A stretch of DNA of 36,889 nt from Neophaeotheca triangularis (Eukaryota), in NCBI GenBank assembly GCA_054600435.1, contig BAAIJX010000053.1, forward strand, positions 124,001 through 160,889. Reading direction: 5' to 3'. Position numbers and translations under genes: made by a program. This document shows, in pieces, positions 17,552 to 31,250 of this stretch (position 1 is the stretch's first letter; each line of letters opens with the position of its first letter). The notes beneath the pieces are model-generated. The model ran no database searches. It had not been told where the DNA came from and worked only from the letters and a program-made list of their open reading frames with translations.

Positions 17552-18340
17552 GTTTGCGATCAATCAACTTCGGCTGCAAATGTGCTTGGTCTCCGAACGC
17601 CGGGACAGTGATCTGGGAAAAGACAAATACTTATATACAGCACATCATGCTCTCAGTGCACGCCGCCGGGCAATCGTCGTGACCAGGAGATAGAAGCAGT
17701 GTCATGGTTCGAAGGTGATTGCAGCGCCGAGGCCTATCGTTCTATTGTATGGGCAGACCGGCAGCCTCCTGACTCTCAGCCCACTCAGGGCTATCAAAGC
17801 CAAACCTACTAGCAACAAGCTCCAGTGAAGACCAATGCTAGAGCGATTGTAATACGATTTTGTCAAGAGCTATATCTATATCAGAGCCAAGGTGTAGCTG
17901 ACGGTAGAATGAGTCGTAAGGCGAATAGCGTCTCCACTCGAATGACAGCCGCTGATAAGCACCCATCTGCCGTCCGGTATGACAGGGCTCCTGGATGTCC
18001 GTTACGATGTTACTGTCGTGCTGTGCATACGTCTCGAAAGCAAAGGGCCGGGGAACGTGACCGGAGTCAAACATGACGGGAGTATGTAGTGAGTGCAGCT
18101 TTCAGTCTAGACTGCGTTTTCGCGAGCACGTGACACCGCGACGCGTTCCCTCTGTTTATCGATAAGCTCAATGACGGTTGCCTGCGCAGGTGAGTACCTA
18201 AGGGTGCAGGTGGTGTCTAGGAACTTAGGTACCTAAACTAGGTAGTGTTATGACGATCTTCCTGCAACCTACGCTCGAAACTTCCGGACAATTATAGCGG
18301 CGGATCCTTCACCACATCACAACTCAGCGCCACCTACAAA

Positions 18341-20221
18341 ATGTCTGGCCGACGAGCCGGGAATCGCATCCGCGGACCACAGTCTGCGCTCACAGATTTC
18401 CTGGCTGCGAACAACATCTCGGCAGCGCAAATCCGCGATGACTACCAAAGACGTCGCCAGCAGACTGAAGGTGACGACAACGGCGGCGAAGGGCCATCCA
18501 CTGCCGTGCCCGAGCAGACAGAGGAGGAAGCCCAGGAGGCTGCGAATGAAGCTGAGGCTGAAGCTGAAGAGGAGGAAGTAGCAGAGAAGTCGAAGAAGCG
18601 GAAGCGTGCGGAGAAGGATTCAATAGACAGCATCAAGAAAGCGAAAAAGGCCAAGAAGGATGGCAAGAACAAGAAGAAGAAGCGCATGGACCCCGACGAC
18701 GACTTTGAGGACGACGATCTTATTGGGTACGAGAAGTCAAAGCCGGCGCCGGGTCAATTTGAGCATTGCGAGATCTGCAGTAAGAGATTCACCGTCACTC
18801 CGTATAGCAAGGAGGGTCCGGAAGGAGGGCTAGTTTGCACACCATGTGGTAAGGAGCTGGGCAAAGATCTGAAGGCGGAGAAGAAAGCAGCTGCAAAGCC
18901 GGCGGGCAAAAAGAGGCGTAAGCTGGAAAGTGACAGGCTTGATGGTATGGCTATTGGAGGCGCCAAATCACTTCAACAATTATGCATCGAAAAGGTTGCG
19001 CAGCACCATGAGGACGTGGAGGGTCTTGGCGACATGCCTGCGCCGATTGTTGAGCGCTTGAGCGAGATCTTCTCGAAGCGGCGTGTTCTAAAACCCCAGA
19101 CGCTGAAGCTCTTTCTTCGACCTGATCTTGACTCTGTGGTTGTGCACGATGCAGCGTACCTCGAACCAGACGACTACACCCGGATCGTCGCTGAGGTTCC
19201 GAACATGCAGAGGCTAGTGCTTGGGAACGCATGTCAACTCAAGGATAACGGCCTGGGATACATGCTCGAAAAGTGCCACCACCTCAAGCACGTCCAGGTC
19301 TACGCGGGCAATCTAGTGTCGAACGAGATGTGGCACAAGTTCTTCCAGGAGGCGGGACCCAAGTTAGAGACTCTCAAGCTCACTTGGCTAGACGCAGCGT
19401 TCGAAGACGAGACCGTCCGCGACTTGGTCGAGCACAGCCCCAATCTCCGACGTCTAAAGCTCAAACTGTGCCGACGCATCGGTGAAGAATCCGTTACGGC
19501 CATCACAAGCATGCCAGCGCTAGAGCACCTCACCCTACAAATCGGCCAAGAAGTCTCCAACGAAGCTCTATGTGCTCTTGTTAAGACTCGTGGGCCTGGC
19601 CTACGCACCCTCGCCCTCGAAACATTCCGAGATCTCGATGATACTGTCCTCGCCGCCATCCACGATTCCTGCCACAGCCTAAGCAAATTCCGCATATCGG
19701 AAAATGACACCGCCACCGATGCCGCGTTCGCCTCCCTCTTTACCGAGTGGGACAACCCACCGCTCAAATACATCGACGTAAATTCCACTCGCGACATTGA
19801 CAACAACAATCCCACAGGTCCCGAGGAAGCCATCGGAGTCGCCTCGGCCGGTTTTAAAGCCATGATGGCCCATTCGGGCTCTGCGCTCAAACACCTGGAC
19901 ATATCATCATGCCGCCACATCGAGCTCACTGCTTTCGAAGAGGTCTTCAACGGCAGCCACGCGTATCCGATGCTCGAGCACGTCAATGTCAGCTTCTGCA
20001 ATACCATTGACACGACCGCTATCGCGGGGATTTTCAAGAGCTGCCCCAACCTGAAGAGGCTGATTGCTTTTGGGTGTTTCAAGGTCGAGGACGTTGTGGT
20101 GCCGAAGAATGTCGCGCTCATCGGTGTTCCCAGGGCGCAGGATGCCATCGAGCAGTTTGGCGTGGGTTTTGGCATTGAGGAGGCGGCTGAGCGGTTGCCC
20201 GCGGTCACTGCTGGTGCTTGA
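18341..20221 (+). CDS. RAD7: Nucleotide excision repair protein Rad7/Rhp7 (Cys-knuckle plus RNI-like leucine-rich repeats), 626 aa
   Basis: N-terminal IRGPQSALTDFLAANNISA, CEICSKRFTVTPYS...LVCTPC, BC-box-like SLQQLCIEKV, and multiple LRRs. Confidence 0.9.
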   Translation: MSGRRAGNRIRGPQSALTDFLAANNISAAQIRDDYQRRRQQTEGDDNGGEGPSTAVPEQTEEEAQEAANEAEAEAEEEEVAEKSKKRKRAEKDSIDSIKKAKKAKKDGKNKKKKRMDPDDDFEDDDLIGYEKSKPAPGQFEHCEICSKRFTVTPYSKEGPEGGLVCTPCGKELGKDLKAEKKAAAKPAGKKRRKLESDRLDGMAIGGAKSLQQLCIEKVAQHHEDVEGLGDMPAPIVERLSEIFSKRRVLKPQTLKLFLRPDLDSVVVHDAAYLEPDDYTRIVAEVPNMQRLVLGNACQLKDNGLGYMLEKCHHLKHVQVYAGNLVSNEMWHKFFQEAGPKLETLKLTWLDAAFEDETVRDLVEHSPNLRRLKLKLCRRIGEESVTAITSMPALEHLTLQIGQEVSNEALCALVKTRGPGLRTLALETFRDLDDTVLAAIHDSCHSLSKFRISENDTATDAAFASLFTEWDNPPLKYIDVNSTRDIDNNNPTGPEEAIGVASAGFKAMMAHSGSALKHLDISSCRHIELTAFEEVFNGSHAYPMLEHVNVSFCNTIDTTAIAGIFKSCPNLKRLIAFGCFKVEDVVVPKNVALIGVPRAQDAIEQFGVGFGIEEAAERLPAVTAGA

Positions 20222-21191
20222 GCTTGAGTTGGGTCACTTACAGGCAGCTGAGCAAGTGATTGCTTTCTGTTTACCCGGTTGCCCAATTGCTAGTGCGCTT
20301 CGTTGGTCTATGGTATTAATGATGCTCTTGGTTGATGCTTTACGGTGTATATTTACGAAACTACAGACACGAATGTACCATCATTTTGACAGCGCGGATT
20401 TAGCTTGAGCAATGTCGCCATCGTTCTACGCATCACTTCAAACCAAGTTCAGCGTCTCGATGATCGTATATTATTACCATGTAGTATACAGCGGGTTTGA
20501 TAGTGCCTTCATGTTGTTGGGTTCTTGCTGTTGTTGCAGGTGATGTCTTGCTGTTGATTATCAATAACTGGTTTTGACCCTGTCAACACCCGACCAATCT
20601 CAAGGGGCCTGTTTTATTTTATCTCATGTCAAAAGGCGTTGACAGAGTCCCCTCCAAAGCTCTAATACGTATCACGGCGCGATGGCACGCCGTTCTCGTT
20701 GCGTTAACGCTCCCTAGACTTCTATGCCACATAAATAGCACTGATTTGTCAACATCAAGAACCATATATCGAGCTCGAGATTTGATATACGCGGCCAGCA
20801 GCAAGGGACTCGCGGTTTCTAGTTGAGCTTTGGCATAAAGCACAGTAGGCAACCCTTCCCTTCACTTGGAAAGTGTTTTCTCACGTTACGAAGAAAGTCT
20901 GAAAGCTGTTGACGGTCCTCTGCTTCAGTACACATCTGACTGATGTTGCGGACTGGAAGCGCTAGTGCCTTCTTGTGCCGGTTCCTCTTCTTGGTGCGAA
21001 TGAAAGCCTGCCTGGGCATGGGATCAGAGCAGGCAGCAGTGTCGAGGAATCCTGTCCCAATGAAGAGAACGACTATGCGAGGAGCGAGGCGCAGAGACTG
21101 CGGAAGGCGTGCTTGCGTGATAAAGGCCCTCTGTCTCGAATGGAGTGCGGGGCTACGTTGAGTTAATGGGGTTTGAGGTCAGACCAACTGT

Positions 21192-22298
21192 TCAGTCCTG
21201 AAAGAGCAGCCCTGCCGCATACTCGACGTTCCCGTTCGTCATATTGAGCGCACCGACAGCCTGCTGCTGGCTGAAACCCAAATCTTGCAGCGACTTGACA
21301 CTCTCAGCAGGAAAGTTATGTTGAGGCTGCGGCATCTGCGCAGGCGCGCCTTGTCCGTAGGGTCTAATAGGCATCTGCTGCTGAGCCGGCGAGGGCGGAA
21401 GAGGCTTACGCACCACGCCCGCAATCCTAACTGCCCATTTCCATGGCCTATCTTGCCCTCCAGGCAACGCGTTGAAGTACTCCCATCCCATGACACCCCC
21501 GAAACCCGGGTACCGACTCCTAAGCGTATTCAGCACACCCTCCAACCTTGCCCACTCAACATGCCCAGCACCATTCGCGGGATTTGTAACCATGCCCATG
21601 ACAACCTTCTCCTGCTTCCACCCTAAGCCAATGATAGCATCGTACCACGCCGTCGACCCAGCATCCCCCCAGCCACAATAGAACTGCGTATTGTACCACG
21701 CAATTTCATGCCCTCTCATCTGCTCCAGCAAGCGATAATCAAATGCCGGCCCTGATAAATGCGGCTGGTTGGGCAGCAGCGCGGTAGCAACGGGCGCGAG
21801 CGTGATCAAGAACCCCGCCCCAAAGTCCGCCCTCAGCCGGTCTATAAGCCTCACAGTCCCCGGCAGCGACGTCGGCTCCTCGATATCCAAGTCCACGCCG
21901 TCGAAGCGGTGTTCACGGAGCAGGTCGCGGAGGGGTGCATAGTGGGCTTCGAAACGCGCGGTGTCGGTGCCGTCGAGGCGTGCGTAGGAGCCCTGGGCCG
22001 CGCCGCCTAGCATGGCGAGCACTTTGACGCCAGAGGCTTGCAGCCATGCTGTTTCGGCCCAGAGGGTTTGGAACTTGGAGGACGAGGGCCGAGTGTCGTT
22101 GAGGGTGATGTTGCCGGGGCCTTCGTTGAGGTGGATGGCTGCTATGACTACGTGGGTGACGCCAGTGTTGTTGGCGATGAGAGGGAGGAGGGTGACGGGG
22201 GGTCCGCCATTGGGTTTGTGGTGGGTTTGGTGGTAAAGGACTACTCGTGGCCCTTGGCCGAGGGGGAGCAGGGAGGTGGATTCGGGCGTTGGTGGCAT
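21192..22298 (-). CDS. GH18 glycoside hydrolase (cytosolic ENGase-like, no signal peptide) with a C-terminal UBA domain, ~368 aa
   Basis: Catalytic DxxDxDxE motif FDGVDLDIEE; RVVLYHQT, MLGGAAQGSY, WYNTQFYCGWG, FGGVMGWEYFN. A Pro/Gln linker is followed by UBA-like FPAESVKSLQDLGFSQQQAVGALNMTNGNVEYAAGLLF. Confidence 0.88.
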   Translation of the reverse strand: MPPTPESTSLLPLGQGPRVVLYHQTHHKPNGGPPVTLLPLIANNTGVTHVVIAAIHLNEGPGNITLNDTRPSSSKFQTLWAETAWLQASGVKVLAMLGGAAQGSYARLDGTDTARFEAHYAPLRDLLREHRFDGVDLDIEEPTSLPGTVRLIDRLRADFGAGFLITLAPVATALLPNQPHLSGPAFDYRLLEQMRGHEIAWYNTQFYCGWGDAGSTAWYDAIIGLGWKQEKVVMGMVTNPANGAGHVEWARLEGVLNTLRSRYPGFGGVMGWEYFNALPGGQDRPWKWAVRIAGVVRKPLPPSPAQQQMPIRPYGQGAPAQMPQPQHNFPAESVKSLQDLGFSQQQAVGALNMTNGNVEYAAGLLFQD

Positions 22299-22739
22299 TA
22301 TGAAGATGTTGTGGTAGGAAGGAAGTTGTAGGAAGTCGTGGTGAGGGGGAACTTTAGCCGGACTGTGCTGACACTTCTTACCTTGATACACTTATCTTTG
22401 GTACCTTCTATCACGAGATAGGACGACATCACCGCTCACTTTGAGAGACCTTCGTTTCTGAGGACGCGACCATCGAAAGTGAGCTGCTAACATTCTCCAA
22501 TAACCACATTCACTGCACATTATTGCATAAATTAAGCTGTATTACAAAGCGGTTGTTGCTGGTATCTTATCTACACTACAATGGCCCATAGTCATAACTC
22601 CATAACAACTAAAAAGAAAATCTGCCAGTGGGGCCGGATACTTTTCCCACCCAAAGACCCGTAGGTCACGACCTTTCTAAAGATCTAAACAAAAAAACTC
22701 CCAAGACACCATGCATGCGATTTGTGAAAGATAACACTC

Positions 22740-25700
22740 TCAAACAACCTCTTGCGCCACTTGGAAGTATGAGTTCCTCTCAGACCCGAGCCTGAAGGAG
22801 GAGACGGAAGGTGCTGCGGTCGAGAGTCTGGATTGAGACAAGATGCGCGGGCTAGGGCTCTCCAGCTTCAGATGGTAAGTGGAAGCATTGGGCGTAGGAG
22901 CGTGGGAGCGTAAAGCTGGCTGCTTGGAGCGGGCAAGGTAGCGCGGACTCTGCGCCTTGCCGATCCACAGCAGTTGCTCGTGCTCGCGGAGGTAGCGGTC
23001 GCTGGAGAAACTGCTAAGGACGTTGTTGCGGCCCATCATGCCCAGTTTGCGGCGCTGCTCGCTCTTGTCGTACATGCGCTGTTGGATCATGTCCACTTCT
23101 TCCCTCGAGGGGTGGAGGGAGAGCTTGGGCTTGTAGCCGGGCTCGTCTTCGGCCCAGGCGGACCATTTGTCTAGCAAACCCAGGATGTTGACTTGGGCTT
23201 TGGCTAGGGAGTAGGAGTCGTTGGGTGCGATGACTTCGGAGAAGGACTCGAAAGTTACAGGGTCACTGACGACTCGGAATGAGGCTCCCACGTCTGTGCA
23301 GACGACAGGTACACCCGTCAATGCTGCTTCGCCCATAGCTAGGGGAAGACCTTCGGAGATGGAAGAGTTGAGGAATATCCAGGCTTCTTCGAGGACCTTG
23401 GATGGGTTGCCCAGACCCTTGAGTGCAACGTGATCGCGCAAACCCTTGGACGCCAGAATCTCCTTGCATTCGACGGAATAGGCGGGTGCCTTCTCCATGT
23501 CTCCGTAGATGTCGAGTTGGTAATCCTTGAAGCCCCACTCGTTGACAATGATGTCTGCGGCAAGCAAGGCGTTCTTGATATCCTTGACAAAGCGAACGTG
23601 CGACAACATAGTCACAGTCGGAACCTTGGACTTGATCTTTTCGATGGGCTTGAACTTCTCCATGTTGCAGATACCGTTGACAACCGGGTCGATCTTGCGC
23701 GCAAAGGTGCGGCGGTGCTCCAGGATGCCCTCTTGGGTGCCGTGCTCGACTTCCCAGCCTGGGTTGAAGAAGTCGGCGCAGGGCAGTACCACGTCTGCAT
23801 AGTGCAAAATCAAAGTGGAGGCCATGCGCGAGAGATGGATGAGCGATGTGCAGACGAACGGCGAGTCGAAGGACATGGCAGACGACAGGAAGACTGTGAC
23901 TTCTCTCCAACTGATGCAGTGGTCCCAGACGTGAAGAGTGCAGTTGCGCTTGATCTTGCAGAGGACACCGTAAGACGCGCCTGTGAAATGGTGGGAGGCT
24001 TGGAAGACATCTGGAATCCTTTCGGGCACCGGGATGGAGAAGATGAAAAGGTAGCGGTGCCACATGTCCAAGGCAGTGTCGAGATGTAGAAGGGTAGGGC
24101 ACTCTGGGTCCAGCCATTCAGAAATCGGCCGAGCATTTTCGACGTCTTCCGCAAGCCACAACTCCCGCCAGTGCTCCTTGACAATGTCGCTGTTCCAGAC
24201 TTCACCCCAATGACGGTCAGACTCAAAGTACGAGTTGAGATCAAGCAAGGCCTGCGAAGATTCCTCGACGTGCTGGCGGTCGAATTTGATAGCGCGGGCA
24301 CATCGTACCAGACTAGTCAGGATCGGCAGAAAGTTCTTCTTAATGTCGGCATTACTGGTATTGTTCGATCGTTGCTGAACGGCGGAGTCGAGGAAGTCCT
24401 CAAATACACCGTGCGTGGGTGTCAAGAAGTCGAGACCCCAAAGCGGCAGGACCGAAAGAGATTGAACGTTCTTTTCAATCTGGAACTTGGGCACACCGTA
24501 GTCGTTGGCGTTCTCGGCGACTACGTGCCACCTAATAGAGTTCAAGTCATTGACCATGTCACGACGGCATGCAGACACACCACCGCCTTCGTTCGGCCAG
24601 GTCCCGGTATCCATTGCCAACACGTGGAGGACGTCGTCGCTGTCCTGAATCTGAGTCGCTTGGCTTCGAGTGTTGATCCTGCAGTCACCTCCTTGGCCGA
24701 AGCTGAGAAGATCACCATACTTGAAAGCAAGAGAAGACCAAGCACTGACATCGGGGTCAATGTCCGTCCTCGCCATGATGGCGTCGGCTTGAGACTCAAG
24801 GTACTCGGCAGCAGATCTGAGAAGACCGAGATCACGTCCCGTCCAGTAAGGTCGTAGTACCTGGTCAGCGCGCAGCAGGTTCTCGTCGAGCCATCTGGCG
24901 GTGACGGCGTCGAATTCCTTGCCGCTCTTCCAGGCTTGCCAAAGGTGTGTGCGCTTGAGACCAGTCGAAATAGGGTATCTCTTGACGTTGAAACCGAGCA
25001 GGCGCGAGATAATGCCAGCATGCACCGAGCGGAACAGGAAGAGAGGGTTATCCGCAAGGAAACTGCAGTTAGTGGGCTTCTTGAGGATGCCAAACCAATC
25101 GTACAAGATCATGGGTGGCGTATCGACATACTCGCCATTGCAGGTTGTCTCGATGGTCGGGTGAGATCGATGGTCGTACTTCCACTTTGAGTGCCAGACA
25201 TCAGTGCCCTGAGTGTACGTGGCTTCGGTGACCTTGGTGTAAGGGAGCCAGGTATCGAGTTTCTGCGAGTGTTTCGGCGGCGGCACAGACCACGAGATCT
25301 TCATGTGGATGTGAGCCAGCTTGTAGTCAGCCCGTAGCAGTTCGTCGTCGTATTTGGCGTTCTTGCGGTACTCGTTCTTGAACTCTACCAAGTTGCCGTC
25401 TTTCAGATAGGAACCGGACGTGATGTAGCCTCGGTCGTCGTACTGTATGATTTCGCCGCTCATATCACCTTTAGTGCAAGTACGGCTCATGGGAATCTTT
25501 AATCCCGACGAGTGACCACCCTGGGGATACTCGAATTCGTAGATATTGGAGATGGTCTGGTTGCGGTACTCTTCCTTCTTCAGCAGTACCAAGTCCTTGG
25601 TGTAAGTGCTGATGGACTTGAGCTGACCGTTGCTCTCGGGTTGCTTGTCGTGACGGCCACTATAAAGGTGGAACTCAGAACCACCGGCAGGGAGAGGCTT

Positions 25701-28700
25701 GAAGAAACCCGTAGAAGGGCCCTGGAGACTGTCGATAACAATGCGCTTCTTCTCAATCGTAGTCTTGGTGCCTTTCATCAACCCAAAGAGAGCAGACACA
25801 TTAGGTCGGCCGTAGAACAAGAACCATGGGAGAATCAACTTCTGGAGAAGCTTGACGTAGTTCCAGATACCGTTCAGAATAAATCTAGCAGGCCAGCGGA
25901 TGATGAAGGGCTTGTCGCGGATCACATAGTCGAGCTCGCGCTGGAACTCGGGGTCGGCGACAATCGATACGACGAAGAACTTGACACTGAGTCTCACCGC
26001 CTGGATGATAGACAAAAGGGGATGTTTCGCGCGGTCTTTTAGCTTCTTCACCGGCGAGTCGGTCGCTAGTTTCTGGGAGGCGGCGATAAACCTCTGGTAG
26101 TCGGAGTAGAGAGGCTCAGGGCCGCCGCGGAATTCAAAATCGATCTGTGTCGACCTTGCATACTCTTGGATCATGGAAGTCAGCGAAGCACCCAGGTTGC
26201 AACGAGCAAGATGTTCCGGCACCAAGGAGTCGTCGGCGCAGAATGTGGAGCTGATCCAACCAAGCTGCTCATGGGTAATATGGCATGGGTCACCGCAGGC
26301 GCGCTTCATAAGGAACGACCTGACGAAGCGAGGTAGTAGGTCCCAGTCCCTGTCACAGTCCAAGCCGAGCAAAAGATAACGAAGCAGCTCTTGGTCAGCA
26401 TTCTTCACAACTCGTAGACGCTCCGTGGCAGACCATTCCAGCTGACGCTTGACGCCTTCTGGAATAGAAACTCCAGATCGGTGAGCGGGCTCCACGGCAA
26501 GGATCTCAGCGAGAATAGACTGATCGTAGGACATGCCAAAGCGGGCTTCGGTAGTTGCTTGCATAATGGCCTCGGCGATGACCTTGCAGTTCCTGCGGAT
26601 ATCCATCATCCTTTCATTGCCCTGCTGCTCGTTGCCAACAAGTACGATGATGTGGAGGATATCGCCAGTATCGCGGCTAACACTCCTCATCTTCTCTTCC
26701 TTCTCGAAGAGGTGGCGCGCCGGGACTAGGTCGACGACTATTTTCCCGCTGTGCCAGAGCCCGATGGTTTCCTGTGTCAATCTTTCGGCGAGGGGAAACG
26801 CAGCGCGCACACGAGCCGACTTGCTGGTATTGGCATGCATCCTGAGCGTTTCCATGACCTCAGTACCAGGATGGGTATTGGGATCTACTCGGAAGCGGTG
26901 TTCTTCAGGGAGATCGACAGCCGCGTCGAAGGTATCTTTGAGCTGGCGTTCTGAAAAGTCGGGGTACGGTGCAAGAGAACCCGCAGAGTAGAAAGTCTTG
27001 GAGTTTGAACCCTTCTTTGCCTTGCGATCCTTGAAGCTCGGCCAGCCGATGTTTGCTGTACGCATCGAGAGGGCAGCGGCTGTCCAAGCGGCAATAGCCA
27101 AAGCCACTACACTGCTATAAGGGAAGTCCTCGGTCTGGGTGTGGAGTACGAGACCGACGACCAAACCAGCAACCGCAGCTATAATCAAGTCACCCATGGC
27201 CAACGCTCCGGTGTAGATTCTGTTGTACTGGTACCAGAGCAAGCCCGTGTATGAGCCCACGTAGGCAAGAAACATGATCGTGGCGTCGCGAGCGTCTTCG
27301 AAAACCCACATGAGCGCAGCAACAACAGCGAGACCCCAGATGTGCATGAAGAAGAATTTGGCAAAGTTTTTCCAGTAGAGGCTTCGTCGAGCCCTGGCAT
27401 CGCGTACAGCGGCCTCGCGGAGGAAGTCGAGAGAAGTAATCGGCTGGTCTGTCCTCTTGTTGGCAAGCGGCCATAGTGGAGTAGCAACAGCATCGAGGCA
27501 AACAGCCGCAACGAGGTAGTAGGCGAGACCGAAACCGACAGACAAACGGAAGTCGTCGCTGTCCGCCGCGGACAAACCGACCAGAGAGGAGCCAGTAAGG
27601 AGCGCAACCCACTTGTCCATGAGAGCGACAACGAAGTAAAGCACGCCGCACCAGACCTCGGCACCACCGTGGCGCCAATGTATGAAGGCGTTGTGAAGCT
27701 TCAAACCCTTTTGCATGTCCTTGAGCGTATCGACGCCAGCCTTGCACTGCAAGTTCCAAGTTGGGCTGTACGGGTAAGGCATTTTTGTCCTGGAGTATTT
27801 GCAGTACCAATCCATCAGGAACAGCGTGGCATCGTGGCCTTTGGCGAGTTTTTTTATGAATACGTCTGAGGTGGACTTCTGCCATGGGCTACGGTTGCGT
27901 TCTTTGTTCAGAGCCTCCATGAGAGCCAGGCGAGGAAGGGGTGTCGCGGCGAGGTCAGTAACACCCTCGGGCAGCTCCATTTTCTCGCCAGTGACCTCAG
28001 CCTGTTGCGTGTACCAGTTGACGACTTCCGTGTCAGAGACGATTGGCACATCCAGATACCAGTTGTTCCAGTTGGAGGCGACCCGACGAGCTCCGAATGT
28101 GAGCAAGATCAGGAACCCGCTCAATACGCATGGGTAGACAATGATGTCGTTTCCAATCCAAAGTGTAAGGATAGGTGAGATGAAAAGCAGCGGGATGCAC
28201 ATGACGATTGTCATCCTTCCGGACTGGAACTGGAAGCCAGGGAATTGGTAGATGGCAAGGGTCGCAAGCATCGTGAGGTATGTCGATAACATGAGGAAGT
28301 AAAAGACGAAGATGAAACCTTCGTATGGACTTCTGATCACGCTGAGAACGATGAAAGCGCCAACGCTGATGATGAGGCCGAGAGCGATACCAGCGATGAA
28401 GCGGGTAAGGACAAACATATTCATCGCTGGGAAGGCCATGCAGTACAGGTAGTAAGCTCCGCCGTGGCCGACCCAGGTACCGATTCCACCCACGAGGAGC
28501 AGGGCAATCATGAGGCCTCCAGTGGCCATGGTCTTCTCACCTTCGGACATGTAGGTGCTGAGGTAAAGTCCTCGGCCAATTGTAGTAAGCATCAAAATAT
28601 CCACCAAGGCCGGAACAGCAAAGATACCGAGGAAGGTGACATGGTAGTATAATGGGATCTCTTCGCGGCCGGCGTTTGGATCTTCATCAGTACCCATGGA

Positions 28701-31250
28701 GGCGTACGCGGTCGGCAGTTCGGTGGTTTTATCGTCACGGTGAGGCGGCTGGTGCATTTGGTAGTAAATCTTGTATTTGTCCGCCAGGATTCTTCCCACG
28801 GCATTCGAAGTCATGTCCAGGTAAGCTTCGCATTGCGAGCCGAGAGCGAACATTTCGGAAAAGCATGCTGCCTGGTCTGCGTGAGCACCGTTGGGCATAG
28901 GGTTGCGGTCCAACACTTCGAGATAGACTTCTTCGATGGCCAGTTTGCGAAACGCACAAAAGACGGAGAGAGCGAAGATGTCGGCGCTTGCATCGATTTG
29001 GCCTTTCCGAAGCACCTTCTCCAAGGTTTTCTCCAGGACCGCGAGCTGCGGAGCTTCTTGCCGCATCAATACGCCTGGCAGCCAAGAGTCGATCGCTTTG
29101 AAGACAGAGAGTGCGGCCGCGGGGCGAGGGCCGTTGCAGCCCTTTTCGCGGTACCATTCGAGACGAGATTCAATCAGCTCCTCTGGCGAGATCTCGCCGG
29201 AAAGATAAGCAGTAGTATTGAGATGGCGCAGACGGGTAATCGAAGGAACCTCCAGAAGCTGATATTCGCAACAGACCTGAATCTTTCTGGAAAATGACAT
29301 TGCTTCTCTGCAACTAGACATTCGCAGTCGCTGTAAAAGCAAGAGGTTTTCCGTGGGTGTGAGTGCTTCGATATCCTTGACAATGCGGTCCGGTAGATCC
29401 CAGGGCTCAGCGAGAGTTTCAGTGCGCTCTGCCAGAGCCATTTCGGCGACATAGCAGTCAAAGCGCGAGAAGCTCCTACTGGATAGGAACGTGTGCAAGA
29501 GCGCTCCGGTTCGATCTGTGGTCTTCGCGGAGAGGTAAATGTCGGTCGTACCTGCCGCGGTGTTGATATCGTAGAGACCCCACGCCTGATGATCGGTCCC
29601 CGCGTGGAATCCAGAGTGCAGACCGACGTAGACACGAAGGCGATCTTCCATGTTTCCCTGGGCAACGCTGATCAAATCGAGCAGCTCCTTCATCGCCTGA
29701 GAGCTCAATGAAGCGTTTGGCCAGGAGCTTCGCTTCTCGTATGCGACCTGGAGTTTCTCAGCCATGGCGTTCAATTCCGTGGGCTGCACAAGATCCAGCA
29801 TTTTGAGGTCTCGGAGCCGGCGCTGGCCTTCCACGAGACCGGCAAAGTCGCCAGCCGTGAACTTGAGACCGAGTTGGAAGCAACCAAGTCCAGTGTAGTC
29901 TTCGTTGCTAGCTGAAATGGAAAATGGGTTGCTAGCGGTGTCACCGTGCTGCATGGACCAGTCGAAATCGCCGTTAATGATGCCTTGTGCAGCTAGACGT
30001 TGATCACGCTCTGCTGGCTGAAGCTCCAGCGCGTCTGAGATGCCAGGCAGGAAGTCGTCGAGCGATTGGTACGTGTCGGAATTGCCAGCAGAGTCCTTCA
30101 CAATGCGATCGTTCTTGCGCCAGGTCTCATGGTATTTGATTGTGTCGTTACCCTTCAGCCACATCAATGCGCCAAGTGGCTCCGCGGTGAAGCACCGCTG
30201 TACAGCGACATCAGCGTCCGTGAGAGCAGCATTTGGTCCAATCCAGCTAAAAGCCGTATTGAATCGGCACCAGTTATAGCTTCTCTTGACAACTGAATGA
30301 GACAGCTCGACATTGTCATCAATGGTCTCCCACATCATGAGCGTTGATCCGCCACTCCAAGCATGCTTTGCCAAAGCTCTCTGCGCCCTTCGCATGGAGT
30401 CCATCTGGAAATAGTTGCGCCTATCGCCGTTGGACAAGATGGTACCATTCTTGCAGACGAGGCCGCTGATCAAAGACATGTCAATCTGCGCGACCTCTTG
30501 GGGCGTGAGGTAATCGGGAGGGGATACCTCAAGGTATGCCCCAACGTTCGCTGACTGCAGGTATTCCAGAAGCTTGTTCAGGATGACCGGGTGGAAAACA
30601 GCTCCATAGTTGGCTATCAAGATCCCGCAAAAGGGCGAGCGAGCATCTGTTCGGCGCTTGAACTGACTGCTAAGAGTCTCGACGATCCTCGTCAACGCTT
30701 GGACGTTGTTGGTGCCTCCGCTGCTGCTCGCGCCTACGATAGCCTCGACATCCAAGCGCCCGACTATACGGCCAGACGTCGACTGGGCCGCAGCGTCCAA
30801 GACGCCCGAACGAGCAGGGTCGAGTACGAGGAGGTCCCATTGTGAGAGAAGTTGTGCTTGGTTGGCTGTAGGTGGGTTGTTGAATGCTCCCAAAAAGACG
30901 CCAAACGTTTTTGGAGGTTTGATCGATCGTTGCTGAGGGTAGATGGAGTTCAGATCCCCCGCAAGGCTATCGAGGTATTTTGTAACGGCGGCAGGTACTT
31001 TGGGAGTCCGACCCCGTCGCTTACGAATGGTCTTCCTGACGTATTTGTAGATGGCCCAGACGAAGTACAGTGCGCCAATGACAAGACTGACGAGCGCGAG
31101 AAAGGCGAGTGTCTGACAGCAATCGATCGTCAGAAAAGGTCTATCAGTGTAGCAGGTCACAATAGCGGAGCGACTTACTCTATCCCACCAATTCTCGATC
31201 ATGAGGTCCCAGCCAATGGCCGATAGGCCCAGAAACTCTGCTCCGGCCAT
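22740..31250 (-). CDS. gtb3: Giant multi-pass membrane GT4 glycosyltransferase, Gtb3-like (putative galactosaminogalactan synthase; PelF-like catalytic domain); probable 66-nt in-frame intron 31178-31113, ~2814 aa
   Basis: C-terminal GT-B motifs SHVRFVKDIKNALLAADII and NSSISEGLPLAMGEAALTGVPVVCTDVG; two clusters of hydrophobic helices at ~28650-27060; N-terminal TM segment. Intron GTAAGT...CTGAT...TCAG. Adjacent to spherulin-4 genes, as in the Aspergillus GAG cluster. Confidence 0.85.
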   Translation of the reverse strand: MAGAEFLGLSAIGWDLMIENWWDRVSRSAIVTCYTDRPFLTIDCCQTLAFLALVSLVIGALYFVWAIYKYVRKTIRKRRGRTPKVPAAVTKYLDSLAGDLNSIYPQQRSIKPPKTFGVFLGAFNNPPTANQAQLLSQWDLLVLDPARSGVLDAAAQSTSGRIVGRLDVEAIVGASSSGGTNNVQALTRIVETLSSQFKRRTDARSPFCGILIANYGAVFHPVILNKLLEYLQSANVGAYLEVSPPDYLTPQEVAQIDMSLISGLVCKNGTILSNGDRRNYFQMDSMRRAQRALAKHAWSGGSTLMMWETIDDNVELSHSVVKRSYNWCRFNTAFSWIGPNAALTDADVAVQRCFTAEPLGALMWLKGNDTIKYHETWRKNDRIVKDSAGNSDTYQSLDDFLPGISDALELQPAERDQRLAAQGIINGDFDWSMQHGDTASNPFSISASNEDYTGLGCFQLGLKFTAGDFAGLVEGQRRLRDLKMLDLVQPTELNAMAEKLQVAYEKRSSWPNASLSSQAMKELLDLISVAQGNMEDRLRVYVGLHSGFHAGTDHQAWGLYDINTAAGTTDIYLSAKTTDRTGALLHTFLSSRSFSRFDCYVAEMALAERTETLAEPWDLPDRIVKDIEALTPTENLLLLQRLRMSSCREAMSFSRKIQVCCEYQLLEVPSITRLRHLNTTAYLSGEISPEELIESRLEWYREKGCNGPRPAAALSVFKAIDSWLPGVLMRQEAPQLAVLEKTLEKVLRKGQIDASADIFALSVFCAFRKLAIEEVYLEVLDRNPMPNGAHADQAACFSEMFALGSQCEAYLDMTSNAVGRILADKYKIYYQMHQPPHRDDKTTELPTAYASMGTDEDPNAGREEIPLYYHVTFLGIFAVPALVDILMLTTIGRGLYLSTYMSEGEKTMATGGLMIALLLVGGIGTWVGHGGAYYLYCMAFPAMNMFVLTRFIAGIALGLIISVGAFIVLSVIRSPYEGFIFVFYFLMLSTYLTMLATLAIYQFPGFQFQSGRMTIVMCIPLLFISPILTLWIGNDIIVYPCVLSGFLILLTFGARRVASNWNNWYLDVPIVSDTEVVNWYTQQAEVTGEKMELPEGVTDLAATPLPRLALMEALNKERNRSPWQKSTSDVFIKKLAKGHDATLFLMDWYCKYSRTKMPYPYSPTWNLQCKAGVDTLKDMQKGLKLHNAFIHWRHGGAEVWCGVLYFVVALMDKWVALLTGSSLVGLSAADSDDFRLSVGFGLAYYLVAAVCLDAVATPLWPLANKRTDQPITSLDFLREAAVRDARARRSLYWKNFAKFFFMHIWGLAVVAALMWVFEDARDATIMFLAYVGSYTGLLWYQYNRIYTGALAMGDLIIAAVAGLVVGLVLHTQTEDFPYSSVVALAIAAWTAAALSMRTANIGWPSFKDRKAKKGSNSKTFYSAGSLAPYPDFSERQLKDTFDAAVDLPEEHRFRVDPNTHPGTEVMETLRMHANTSKSARVRAAFPLAERLTQETIGLWHSGKIVVDLVPARHLFEKEEKMRSVSRDTGDILHIIVLVGNEQQGNERMMDIRRNCKVIAEAIMQATTEARFGMSYDQSILAEILAVEPAHRSGVSIPEGVKRQLEWSATERLRVVKNADQELLRYLLLGLDCDRDWDLLPRFVRSFLMKRACGDPCHITHEQLGWISSTFCADDSLVPEHLARCNLGASLTSMIQEYARSTQIDFEFRGGPEPLYSDYQRFIAASQKLATDSPVKKLKDRAKHPLLSIIQAVRLSVKFFVVSIVADPEFQRELDYVIRDKPFIIRWPARFILNGIWNYVKLLQKLILPWFLFYGRPNVSALFGLMKGTKTTIEKKRIVIDSLQGPSTGFFKPLPAGGSEFHLYSGRHDKQPESNGQLKSISTYTKDLVLLKKEEYRNQTISNIYEFEYPQGGHSSGLKIPMSRTCTKGDMSGEIIQYDDRGYITSGSYLKDGNLVEFKNEYRKNAKYDDELLRADYKLAHIHMKISWSVPPPKHSQKLDTWLPYTKVTEATYTQGTDVWHSKWKYDHRSHPTIETTCNGEYVDTPPMILYDWFGILKKPTNCSFLADNPLFLFRSVHAGIISRLLGFNVKRYPISTGLKRTHLWQAWKSGKEFDAVTARWLDENLLRADQVLRPYWTGRDLGLLRSAAEYLESQADAIMARTDIDPDVSAWSSLAFKYGDLLSFGQGGDCRINTRSQATQIQDSDDVLHVLAMDTGTWPNEGGGVSACRRDMVNDLNSIRWHVVAENANDYGVPKFQIEKNVQSLSVLPLWGLDFLTPTHGVFEDFLDSAVQQRSNNTSNADIKKNFLPILTSLVRCARAIKFDRQHVEESSQALLDLNSYFESDRHWGEVWNSDIVKEHWRELWLAEDVENARPISEWLDPECPTLLHLDTALDMWHRYLFIFSIPVPERIPDVFQASHHFTGASYGVLCKIKRNCTLHVWDHCISWREVTVFLSSAMSFDSPFVCTSLIHLSRMASTLILHYADVVLPCADFFNPGWEVEHGTQEGILEHRRTFARKIDPVVNGICNMEKFKPIEKIKSKVPTVTMLSHVRFVKDIKNALLAADIIVNEWGFKDYQLDIYGDMEKAPAYSVECKEILASKGLRDHVALKGLGNPSKVLEEAWIFLNSSISEGLPLAMGEAALTGVPVVCTDVGASFRVVSDPVTFESFSEVIAPNDSYSLAKAQVNILGLLDKWSAWAEDEPGYKPKLSLHPSREEVDMIQQRMYDKSEQRRKLGMMGRNNVLSSFSSDRYLREHEQLLWIGKAQSPRYLARSKQPALRSHAPTPNASTYHLKLESPSPRILSQSRLSTAAPSVSSFRLGSERNSYFQVAQEVV

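Follow-up and report, generated by a model that had tools for sequence, protein, structure and literature searches.

A putative cytosolic GH18 endo-β-N-acetylglucosaminidase fused to a Ddi1-type UBA domain in Neophaeotheca triangularis and other Dothideomycetes

A stretch of 36,889 nucleotides from the fungus Neophaeotheca triangularis (GenBank assembly GCA_054600435.1, contig BAAIJX010000053.1, positions 124,001 to 160,889 of the forward strand; the window, in what follows) carries a gene in which a glycoside hydrolase family 18 (GH18) domain is joined to a C-terminal ubiquitin-associated (UBA) domain. We think it probable that this gene encodes a Dothideomycete cytosolic GH18 endo-β-N-acetylglucosaminidase (ENGase) of subgroup B5, that is, of the Eng18B/gh18-10/ChiC type, followed by a linker and a Ddi1-type UBA domain which would capture ubiquitinated glycoproteins destined for endoplasmic reticulum (ER)-associated degradation (ERAD). 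The C-terminal segment is a real UBA fold, and the GH18-UBA fusion is the rule in Dothideomycetes and not peculiar to the N. triangularis genome.

The enzyme family and its proposed role in ERAD are already known, and the pair of domains is visible in automatic database annotation; the conserved presence of a Ddi1-type UBA on this enzyme, and the tails that replace it in other classes, appear to be undescribed. Full-text searches, with subscription papers partly outside their reach, found no paper describing a fusion of GH18 or ENGase with UBA and no genome survey of fungal deglycosylating enzymes covering Dothideomycetes. A term search of the accessible text on Eng18B, on the structure of Endo T and on gh18-10 (a preprint) gave no mention of UBA or ubiquitin tied to these enzymes, and the literature found, so far as its text is accessible, does not address how the Neurospora crassa ENGase finds its substrates. 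A class-wide fusion to a Ddi1-type UBA offers a concrete and testable recruitment mechanism for an ENGase, is natural evidence that places the enzyme in the ubiquitin-proteasome pathway, and clearly exemplifies the capture of a domain by one proteostasis gene from another. The class-specific tails point to further partners in Neurospora, Trichoderma and Aspergillus.

Gene structure and the catalytic domain

The gene (Table 1) runs from an ATG at 22296-22298 to a TGA at 21192-21194 on the minus strand, and none of its 368 codons is an internal stop, in agreement with the coordinates of the first-pass annotation. Upstream of 22298 no further in-frame ATG precedes the first stop codon, and a scan of the coding sequence (21192-22298) for introns gave no intron-like signal. 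When aligned, the product spans homologues of 355-380 residues from end to end. The GC content of third codon positions (GC3) is 0.70 in the GH18 part, 0.60 in the linker, which is still coding-like, and 0.68 in the UBA tail, while the overall GC content of the flanks is 0.43-0.51. A second isolate (run X2), compared over positions 21000-22500 of the window, differs at 12 single bases, all of them in the 1,107-base coding sequence, while the 394 bases that flank it are identical. Seven of these differences are synonymous and five nonsynonymous, too few to measure selection, and the only one that falls in the UBA is synonymous. Two alternative contigs at about half depth cover 21996-22109 in run X2, a sign that this interval may be heterozygous or come from mixed strains.

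The protein starts with MPPTPE, and both the first barrel strand and the GH18 match begin at residues 16-18. Peak hydropathy of any 10-residue stretch within residues 1-40 is 0.43 (Kyte-Doolittle values in a heuristic of our own, not SignalP). Because the barrel begins so early and the N-terminus is of low hydropathy, we consider a signal peptide to be absent, as had been stated in the first-pass annotation, a reading of the window made from its letters alone, and likewise any membrane anchor or transmembrane segment. The product, with an MPP-x-P N-terminus common to Eng18B-type proteins, is accordingly predicted to be cytosolic.

By sequence similarity the catalytic domain is a fungal GH18 domain of subgroup B5, ENGase type. 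It scores 43 bits against PF00704, for which the cut-off is 29.6 bits, and among PDB entries it is matched best by 2Y8V, which is ChiC of Aspergillus fumigatus, with E 2.8e-98, and next by 4AC1, which is Endo T, with E 4.1e-77; the third-best GH18 match is far weaker (E 9.9e-9). The AlphaFold2 model of the full-length protein has a mean predicted local distance difference test (pLDDT) score of 87.8, with values of about 90 or more in the GH18 part. A Foldseek search with this model placed 2Y8V (E 3.5e-35) and 4AC1 (E 2.0e-32) at the top, with target-normalised TM scores of 0.91 and 0.94, an identity of 56% to ChiC in the Foldseek alignment, and a root mean square deviation (rmsd) of 1.7 Å over 288 columns when superposed on Endo T. 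The motif FDGVDLDIEE, which corresponds to the D-x-x-D-x-D-x-E motif on strand 4 of GH18 barrels and had been described as intact, is so: D136, D138, E140 (the proton donor) and E141 are invariant in an alignment of 22 Dothideomycete homologues (alignment A1), and the counterparts of the catalytic residues in Endo T are D129 and E131 (PMC3408457). By homology with gh18-10 of N. crassa, the enzyme most likely has ENGase activity.

The linker, the UBA domain and its kinship with Ddi1

Between the barrel and the tail lies the Pro/Gln-rich linker of the first-pass annotation, with nine Pro and seven Gln in 30 residues (16/30). Its pLDDT is 44-55, and below 50 at residues 307-318 (AlphaFold2); it is gapped and variable among homologues, and none of its columns is invariant in A1.

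The segment that had been recognised as a UBA, at 21195-21314 (residues 329-368), bears that name out. In the full-length AlphaFold2 model its three helices lie at residues 331-339, 344-353 and 358-367, the LGF loop (340-342) stands between the first two, and residues 350-365 read ALNMTNGNVEYAAGLL. In UBA domains the hydrophobic [ML]-G-[FY] loop between helices 1 and 2 is the ubiquitin-contact surface. G341 and F342 are invariant in A1, and LGF is present in 109 of the 120 closest homologues. Across the 22 sequences of A1, 16 of the 41 UBA columns are invariant. A precomputed PF00627 match is recorded for most of the 120 listed homologues, and four of eight relatives that were scanned exceed the Pfam UBA cut-off with 32-38 bits. 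The 50-residue tail modelled alone in AlphaFold2 forms three helices with a pLDDT of 82.4; its top seven Foldseek matches are all UBA domains (TM 0.67-0.73, with an rmsd of 0.4-1.2 Å for five of them), and UBA, UBA-like or CUE domains predominate in the rest of the list. The ESM Atlas, queried with the tail, returned generic UBA clusters only (scores 0.76-0.78), which are leads only.

A phmmer search with the 50-residue tail matched the UBA of yeast Ddi1 (2MR9) with E 9.8e-10 and 22 of 40 residues identical, and the UBAs of USP13, USP5 and NUB1 were far weaker matches. The profile of A1 agreed with this single-sequence search, matching the Ddi1 UBA with E 2.5e-9 along with the UBAs of NUB1 and USP13. 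When metagenome contigs were scanned with the same tail, 64 loci were found: 19 have GH18 and UBA in one open reading frame (ORF), 40 have a Ddi1-type aspartyl-protease domain upstream of the UBA, five have too little upstream DNA to be classified, and none belongs to any other UBA family. Pfam found PF09668 together with a UBA in all eight of the Ddi1-type loci that were checked. The UBA of the window is 46-63% identical to the 40 metagenome Ddi1 UBAs and has in common with Ddi1 UBAs both an F-P-x-E-S lead-in and the extreme C-terminus G-N-V-E-Y-A-A-G-L-L-F. Within a comparison set without fungal Rad23 or Dsk2 UBAs, it is by its sequence of the Ddi1 type, Ddi1 UBAs being its nearest relatives outside GH18 proteins. 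Read most simply, these sequences point to a GH18 gene that took over the 3' end of a Ddi1 gene, a direction and date of transfer that we infer. The yeast Ddi1 UBA binds ubiquitin with a dissociation constant (Kd) of 43 µM (PMC5028754), and by analogy the UBA of the window enzyme most likely does so too.

The UBA of these 40 fungal Ddi1 genes (loci L021-L064) ends in G-N-V-E-Y-A-A-G-L-L-F-Q, as does that of the GH18 proteins, and this ending is nearly invariant in both families.

Distribution, alternative tails and phylogeny

The survey of domain architectures that the first-pass annotation had proposed found the UBA in 116 of the 120 closest homologues, using a hidden Markov model (HMM) of our own built from the tail. 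Of the four others, three are predictions that are truncated and the fourth has a Sordariomycete-type tail. All named members of the 120 are Dothideomycetes, Zasmidium, Pseudocercospora, Cercospora, Zymoseptoria, Ramularia, Hortaea, Aureobasidium and Baudoinia among them, except two records labelled Quercus suber. Further afield, our HMM found the tail in 21 of 150 representatives of 50%-identity clusters, and those that are named (Patellaria, Periconia, Aulographum, Trichodelitschia and Venturia) are again all Dothideomycetes; the UniProt name of the Venturia homologue is 'UBA domain-containing protein'.

Sordariomycete homologues have an acidic motif tail instead. In 117 of 120 the protein ends in [VL]-P-x-x-F-[ED]-Y-[YHF]-S-D and then acidic residues, which looks, from its sequence, like a short docking motif, maybe phospho-regulated. 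We take it to have a loose likeness to FFAT-type motifs. This invariant motif can be extended as [VL]-P-x-x-F-[ED]-Y-[YHF]-S-D-G plus acidic residues, and its median distance to the C-terminus is 5 residues (P0303-P0421, P0123; P0542). Two Trichoderma proteins of the Sordariomycete set, P0308 and P0328, orthologues of Eng18B, have DGLDLDVE at residues 127-134, the positions published for Eng18B (Eng18B paper). The gh18-10 orthologue of Neurospora tetrasperma (P0542, a cluster member) has the Sordariomycete-type tail and no UBA. In Eurotiales the homologues measure 296-343 residues and finish in a short amphipathic tail, and the Sordariomycete motif occurs in none of them; the tail could, judging by its sequence, be an amphipathic helix. 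In many Eurotiales (P0422-P0541) a short, conserved Met/Leu-rich tail, G-P-M-A-S-S-L-x-N-x-L-R-D-M-M-N-Q, was observed.

A careful maximum-likelihood tree was built from the GH18 domain only, with 53 rows of which five bacterial-type rows served as outgroup and none was, by name, a classical chitinase. The 15 Dothideomycete UBA forms, the window included, group with support of 98/91, and two cytosolic forms with an F-[ED]-Y Sordariomycete-type tail are their sister (95/83). The main Sordariomycete clade (100/100), the Eurotiales (100/98), a secreted Endo T-like clade anchored by P0149, which matches 4AC1 with E 4e-116 (100/98), and a signal-peptide clade with a UBA-like tail (100/97) are likewise recovered. 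The window sequence lies inside a fungal clade with the Trichoderma Eng18B orthologues, the Neurospora gh18-10 orthologue and the Endo T-like proteins (100/97), where it groups with the cytosolic forms, apart from Endo T.

The members of the signal-peptide clade are a Cercospora paralogue (P0183), an Oidiodendron-like protein (P0548), an Atractiella protein (P0167) and P0181. Their tail matches our own HMM and has no Pfam match; the pattern of helices 2 and 3 is kept and the LGF loop is lost. UBA status was considered and rejected for P0165 (Drechslerella), P0167 (Atractiella) and P0183 (Cercospora), which have weak UBA-like hits by our own HMM, no Pfam UBA match and only homologous tails. A quick tree of 98 rows nested this clade within the Dothideomycete clade, a placement that the 53-row tree did not repeat. 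A tree that forced together all 19 UBA-tailed rows, a group picked after inspection of the tree by a trait outside the alignment, had a log-likelihood 14.4 higher than that of the free-search tree and was not rejected by the approximately unbiased test (p-AU 0.753). This reads as one capture of the UBA and a later duplicate that became secreted and whose UBA decayed. The secreted clade is represented in a basidiomycete as well as in a Leotiomycete-like cluster and a Dothideomycete, a hint that duplication took place and that horizontal spread may have followed.

Proposed function, alternatives and related systems

In the function that we propose, the UBA would bind ubiquitin chains on glycoproteins that have been extracted from the ER and ubiquitinated. 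Such binding would keep the catalytic barrel close to its substrate and so raise the local concentration of enzyme; the barrel would then cut the N-glycans inside their chitobiose core, with one GlcNAc left behind, and the deglycosylated chain would be taken by the proteasome. A single polypeptide could in this way do the job that yeast divides between Png1 and the UBA protein Rad23. This ERAD role and the capture of substrates are inferences only. In N. crassa, gh18-10 is cytosolic, deglycosylates RNase B and restores degradation of the ERAD substrate RTL in png1-delta yeast, replacing Png1 (preprint 10.64898/2026.03.25.714127). The same preprint reports that N. crassa PNG-1 is catalytically inactive and proposes that the GH18 ENGase deglycosylates ERAD substrates instead.

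Several results count against this proposal. In the Pfam check that the first-pass annotation had proposed, the GH18 domain cleared its threshold and the UBA of the window did not, with 19.9 bits against a gathering cut-off of 22.4 (PF00627, E 6.5e-4). In the Foldseek search with the isolated tail the best E was 0.014 and none reached 0.001 or less, weak values for so small a domain. Among the Sordariomycete homologues (Purpureocillium query) a UBA was found in 0 of 120 by precomputed Pfam matches and in none by our own HMM even at E 10, and among the Eurotiales homologues (ChiC-type query) in 0 of 120. The order among the fungal B5 clades has no settled support in the 53-row tree, so that the case for orthology with Eng18B leans in part on the cytosolic traits common to both; of the grouping with Eng18B that had been anticipated, the placement among cytosolic B5 ENGases, Eng18B/gh18-10 type included, holds, but a strict sister relation is not proven. 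The signal-peptide paralogues keep a homologous tail though ubiquitin cannot be its ligand there, so a non-ubiquitin role stays a minor rival. Finally, gh18-10 works in the yeast ERAD assay and its N. tetrasperma orthologue has no UBA, which means that the basic role does not depend on a UBA. The domain would be an accessory that aids recruitment, not a requirement.

A broader idea, which we put forward only tentatively, is that fungal cytosolic GH18 ENGases carry at their C-terminus an exchangeable label that directs them to retrotranslocated glycoproteins, with tails specific to each class and a single capture of the UBA. In Dothideomycetes the 3' end of a Ddi1 gene may have supplied both linker and UBA, the address being ubiquitin; the acidic motif of Sordariomycetes may dock to a partner on the ER surface, to Cdc48 or to the proteasome; and the address of Eurotiales may be the short amphipathic helix. 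If this were true, the long-argued link between ENGase and ERAD would have a different physical basis from class to class.

Other explanations of the fusion compete with capture of ubiquitinated substrates. It is unlikely that the UBA is real and serves another purpose, such as binding the ubiquitin-like (UBL) domain of a shuttle (Rad23, Dsk2 or Ddi1) or a ubiquitin-like modifier, dimerisation, or stabilisation of the enzyme against the proteasome. C-terminal UBA domains do shield Rad23 from degradation, and some of the solved UBAs near our model are dimeric or bound to a UBL, for instance Mud1 and the UBA-UBL complex of Dsk2. The monomeric Ddi1 UBA, moreover, binds ubiquitin only weakly (Kd 43 µM; PMC5028754), yet this nearest relative is a UBA with demonstrated ubiquitin binding. 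The cytosolic forms keep without variation the LGF loop and the helix-3 residues that ubiquitin-binding UBAs typically have, whereas the secreted paralogues have lost them, and the purposes listed are themselves compatible with ubiquitin binding.

We regard it as improbable that the true substrates are free oligosaccharides, cytosolic chitin oligomers or products of cell-wall turnover, with a UBA that only regulates turnover or localisation of the enzyme. Databases label the family 'chitinase' or 'class III chitinase', and the assignment of its Dothideomycete members to ENGases is by homology. The nearest characterised relatives, however, are ENGases and not chitinases, and the model superposes closely on Endo T. 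Endo T is stated to be uninvolved in chitin degradation (PMC3408457), and the activity of gh18-10 on RNase B (10.64898/2026.03.25.714127) also speaks for N-glycans.

Less credible again is a three-helix tail that is a leftover, or a folding or pro-peptide element without ubiquitin function, comparable with the C-terminal peptide of Endo T. Secreted Endo T sheds a C-terminal peptide of similar length, 43-46 residues (PMC3408457); the secreted paralogues keep a homologous tail, and the tree uniting all 19 UBA-tailed rows is better than the free tree and not rejected. Against a leftover stand the invariant columns of the UBA beside a linker that has none, the synonymous nature of the sole UBA difference between the two isolates, and the loss of the LGF loop in secreted forms when cytosolic forms keep it; Endo T-like tails, besides, have another motif, D-Y-L-G-M-V-N, and no UBA match. 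It is scarcely believable that the fusion, as read from DNA, arose artefactually, through a chance frame or through separate genes or exons misread as one, given a continuous frame whose GC3 of 0.68-0.70 exceeds the GC of its flanks, the one-ORF architecture in 19 of 19 independent metagenome loci, and a UBA fused in 116 of the 120 homologues, which come from many different genomes.

Two neighbours of the gene were also examined (Table 1). Immediately upstream lies a single frame of 2,843 codons whose product has many hydrophobic segments and a C-terminal part matching glycosyltransferase group 1 (GT4) and DUF3492. Its sequence suggests a polysaccharide synthase of giant size in the membrane, and it presumably resembles the Aspergillus galactosaminogalactan synthase. 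On the other side is a gene for a Rad7/Rhp7-type DNA-repair protein, in which leucine-rich repeats accompany a treble-clef zinc finger of the rhp7 type (E 7.7e-19); nothing evident ties this ordinary gene to the GH18-UBA gene.

Table 1. Positions in the window of the GH18-UBA gene, its parts and its neighbours
Feature	Position	Strand	Basis
Complete GH18-UBA coding sequence, intronless	21192..22298	minus	one open frame, 368 codons + stop
GH18 (beta/alpha)8 domain, residues 16-297, fungal B5 ENGase type (by sequence)	21408..22253	minus	Pfam, PDB, AlphaFold2, Foldseek
Catalytic motif FDGVDLDIEE, residues 132-141	21876..21905	minus	read in translation
Pro/Gln-rich disordered linker, residues 298-327	21318..21407	minus	composition, pLDDT
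UBA, Ddi1-type by sequence, residues 328-368	21195..21317	minus	Pfam, phmmer, AlphaFold2
Putative giant membrane polysaccharide synthase	22740..31271	minus	
Rad7/Rhp7-type DNA-repair protein	18338..20218	plus	

Among known enzymes, those closest in type are Eng18B of Trichoderma atroviride and gh18-10 of N. crassa, with which the window protein shares the catalytic family, the absence of a signal peptide, the MPP-x-P N-terminus and the occurrence of one copy per class-level clade. Unlike it, proteins of that type have no UBA (0/120 Sordariomycetes) and carry the acidic motif tail; Eng18B is described, in the accessible part of its paper, with a GH18 module only. Of the solved structures, that of A. 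fumigatus ChiC (2Y8V, annotated as 'class III chitinase, putative') matches best; ChiC is likewise of the cytosolic type and begins with MPP, whereas its Eurotiales relatives are shorter (296-343 residues), have the short amphipathic tail and lack the UBA (0/120). Endo T, or Eng18A, of Hypocrea jecorina (= Trichoderma reesei; 4AC1) is alike in fold and catalytic residues. It is secreted and glycosylated and is processed at both ends, with 43-46 residues removed from its C-terminus (PMC3408457). In being secreted and processed, and in belonging to a separate clade (100/98), it differs from the window enzyme.

Outside GH18, the functional parallels are yeast Png1 with Rad23 and mammalian NGLY1, which has a PUB domain, with p97; in each pair a cytosolic deglycosylase is brought to ubiquitinated ERAD substrates through an adaptor of the ubiquitin system. 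The window enzyme differs in that it is predicted to be an ENGase, a glycosidase and not an amidase, and in that its module of ubiquitin-binding type is part of the same polypeptide. Ddi1, a UBL-RVP-UBA shuttle and ubiquitin-dependent protease, has a C-terminal UBA of the same type, but in place of its retropepsin-like protease the window protein has a GH18 barrel, and it has no UBL.

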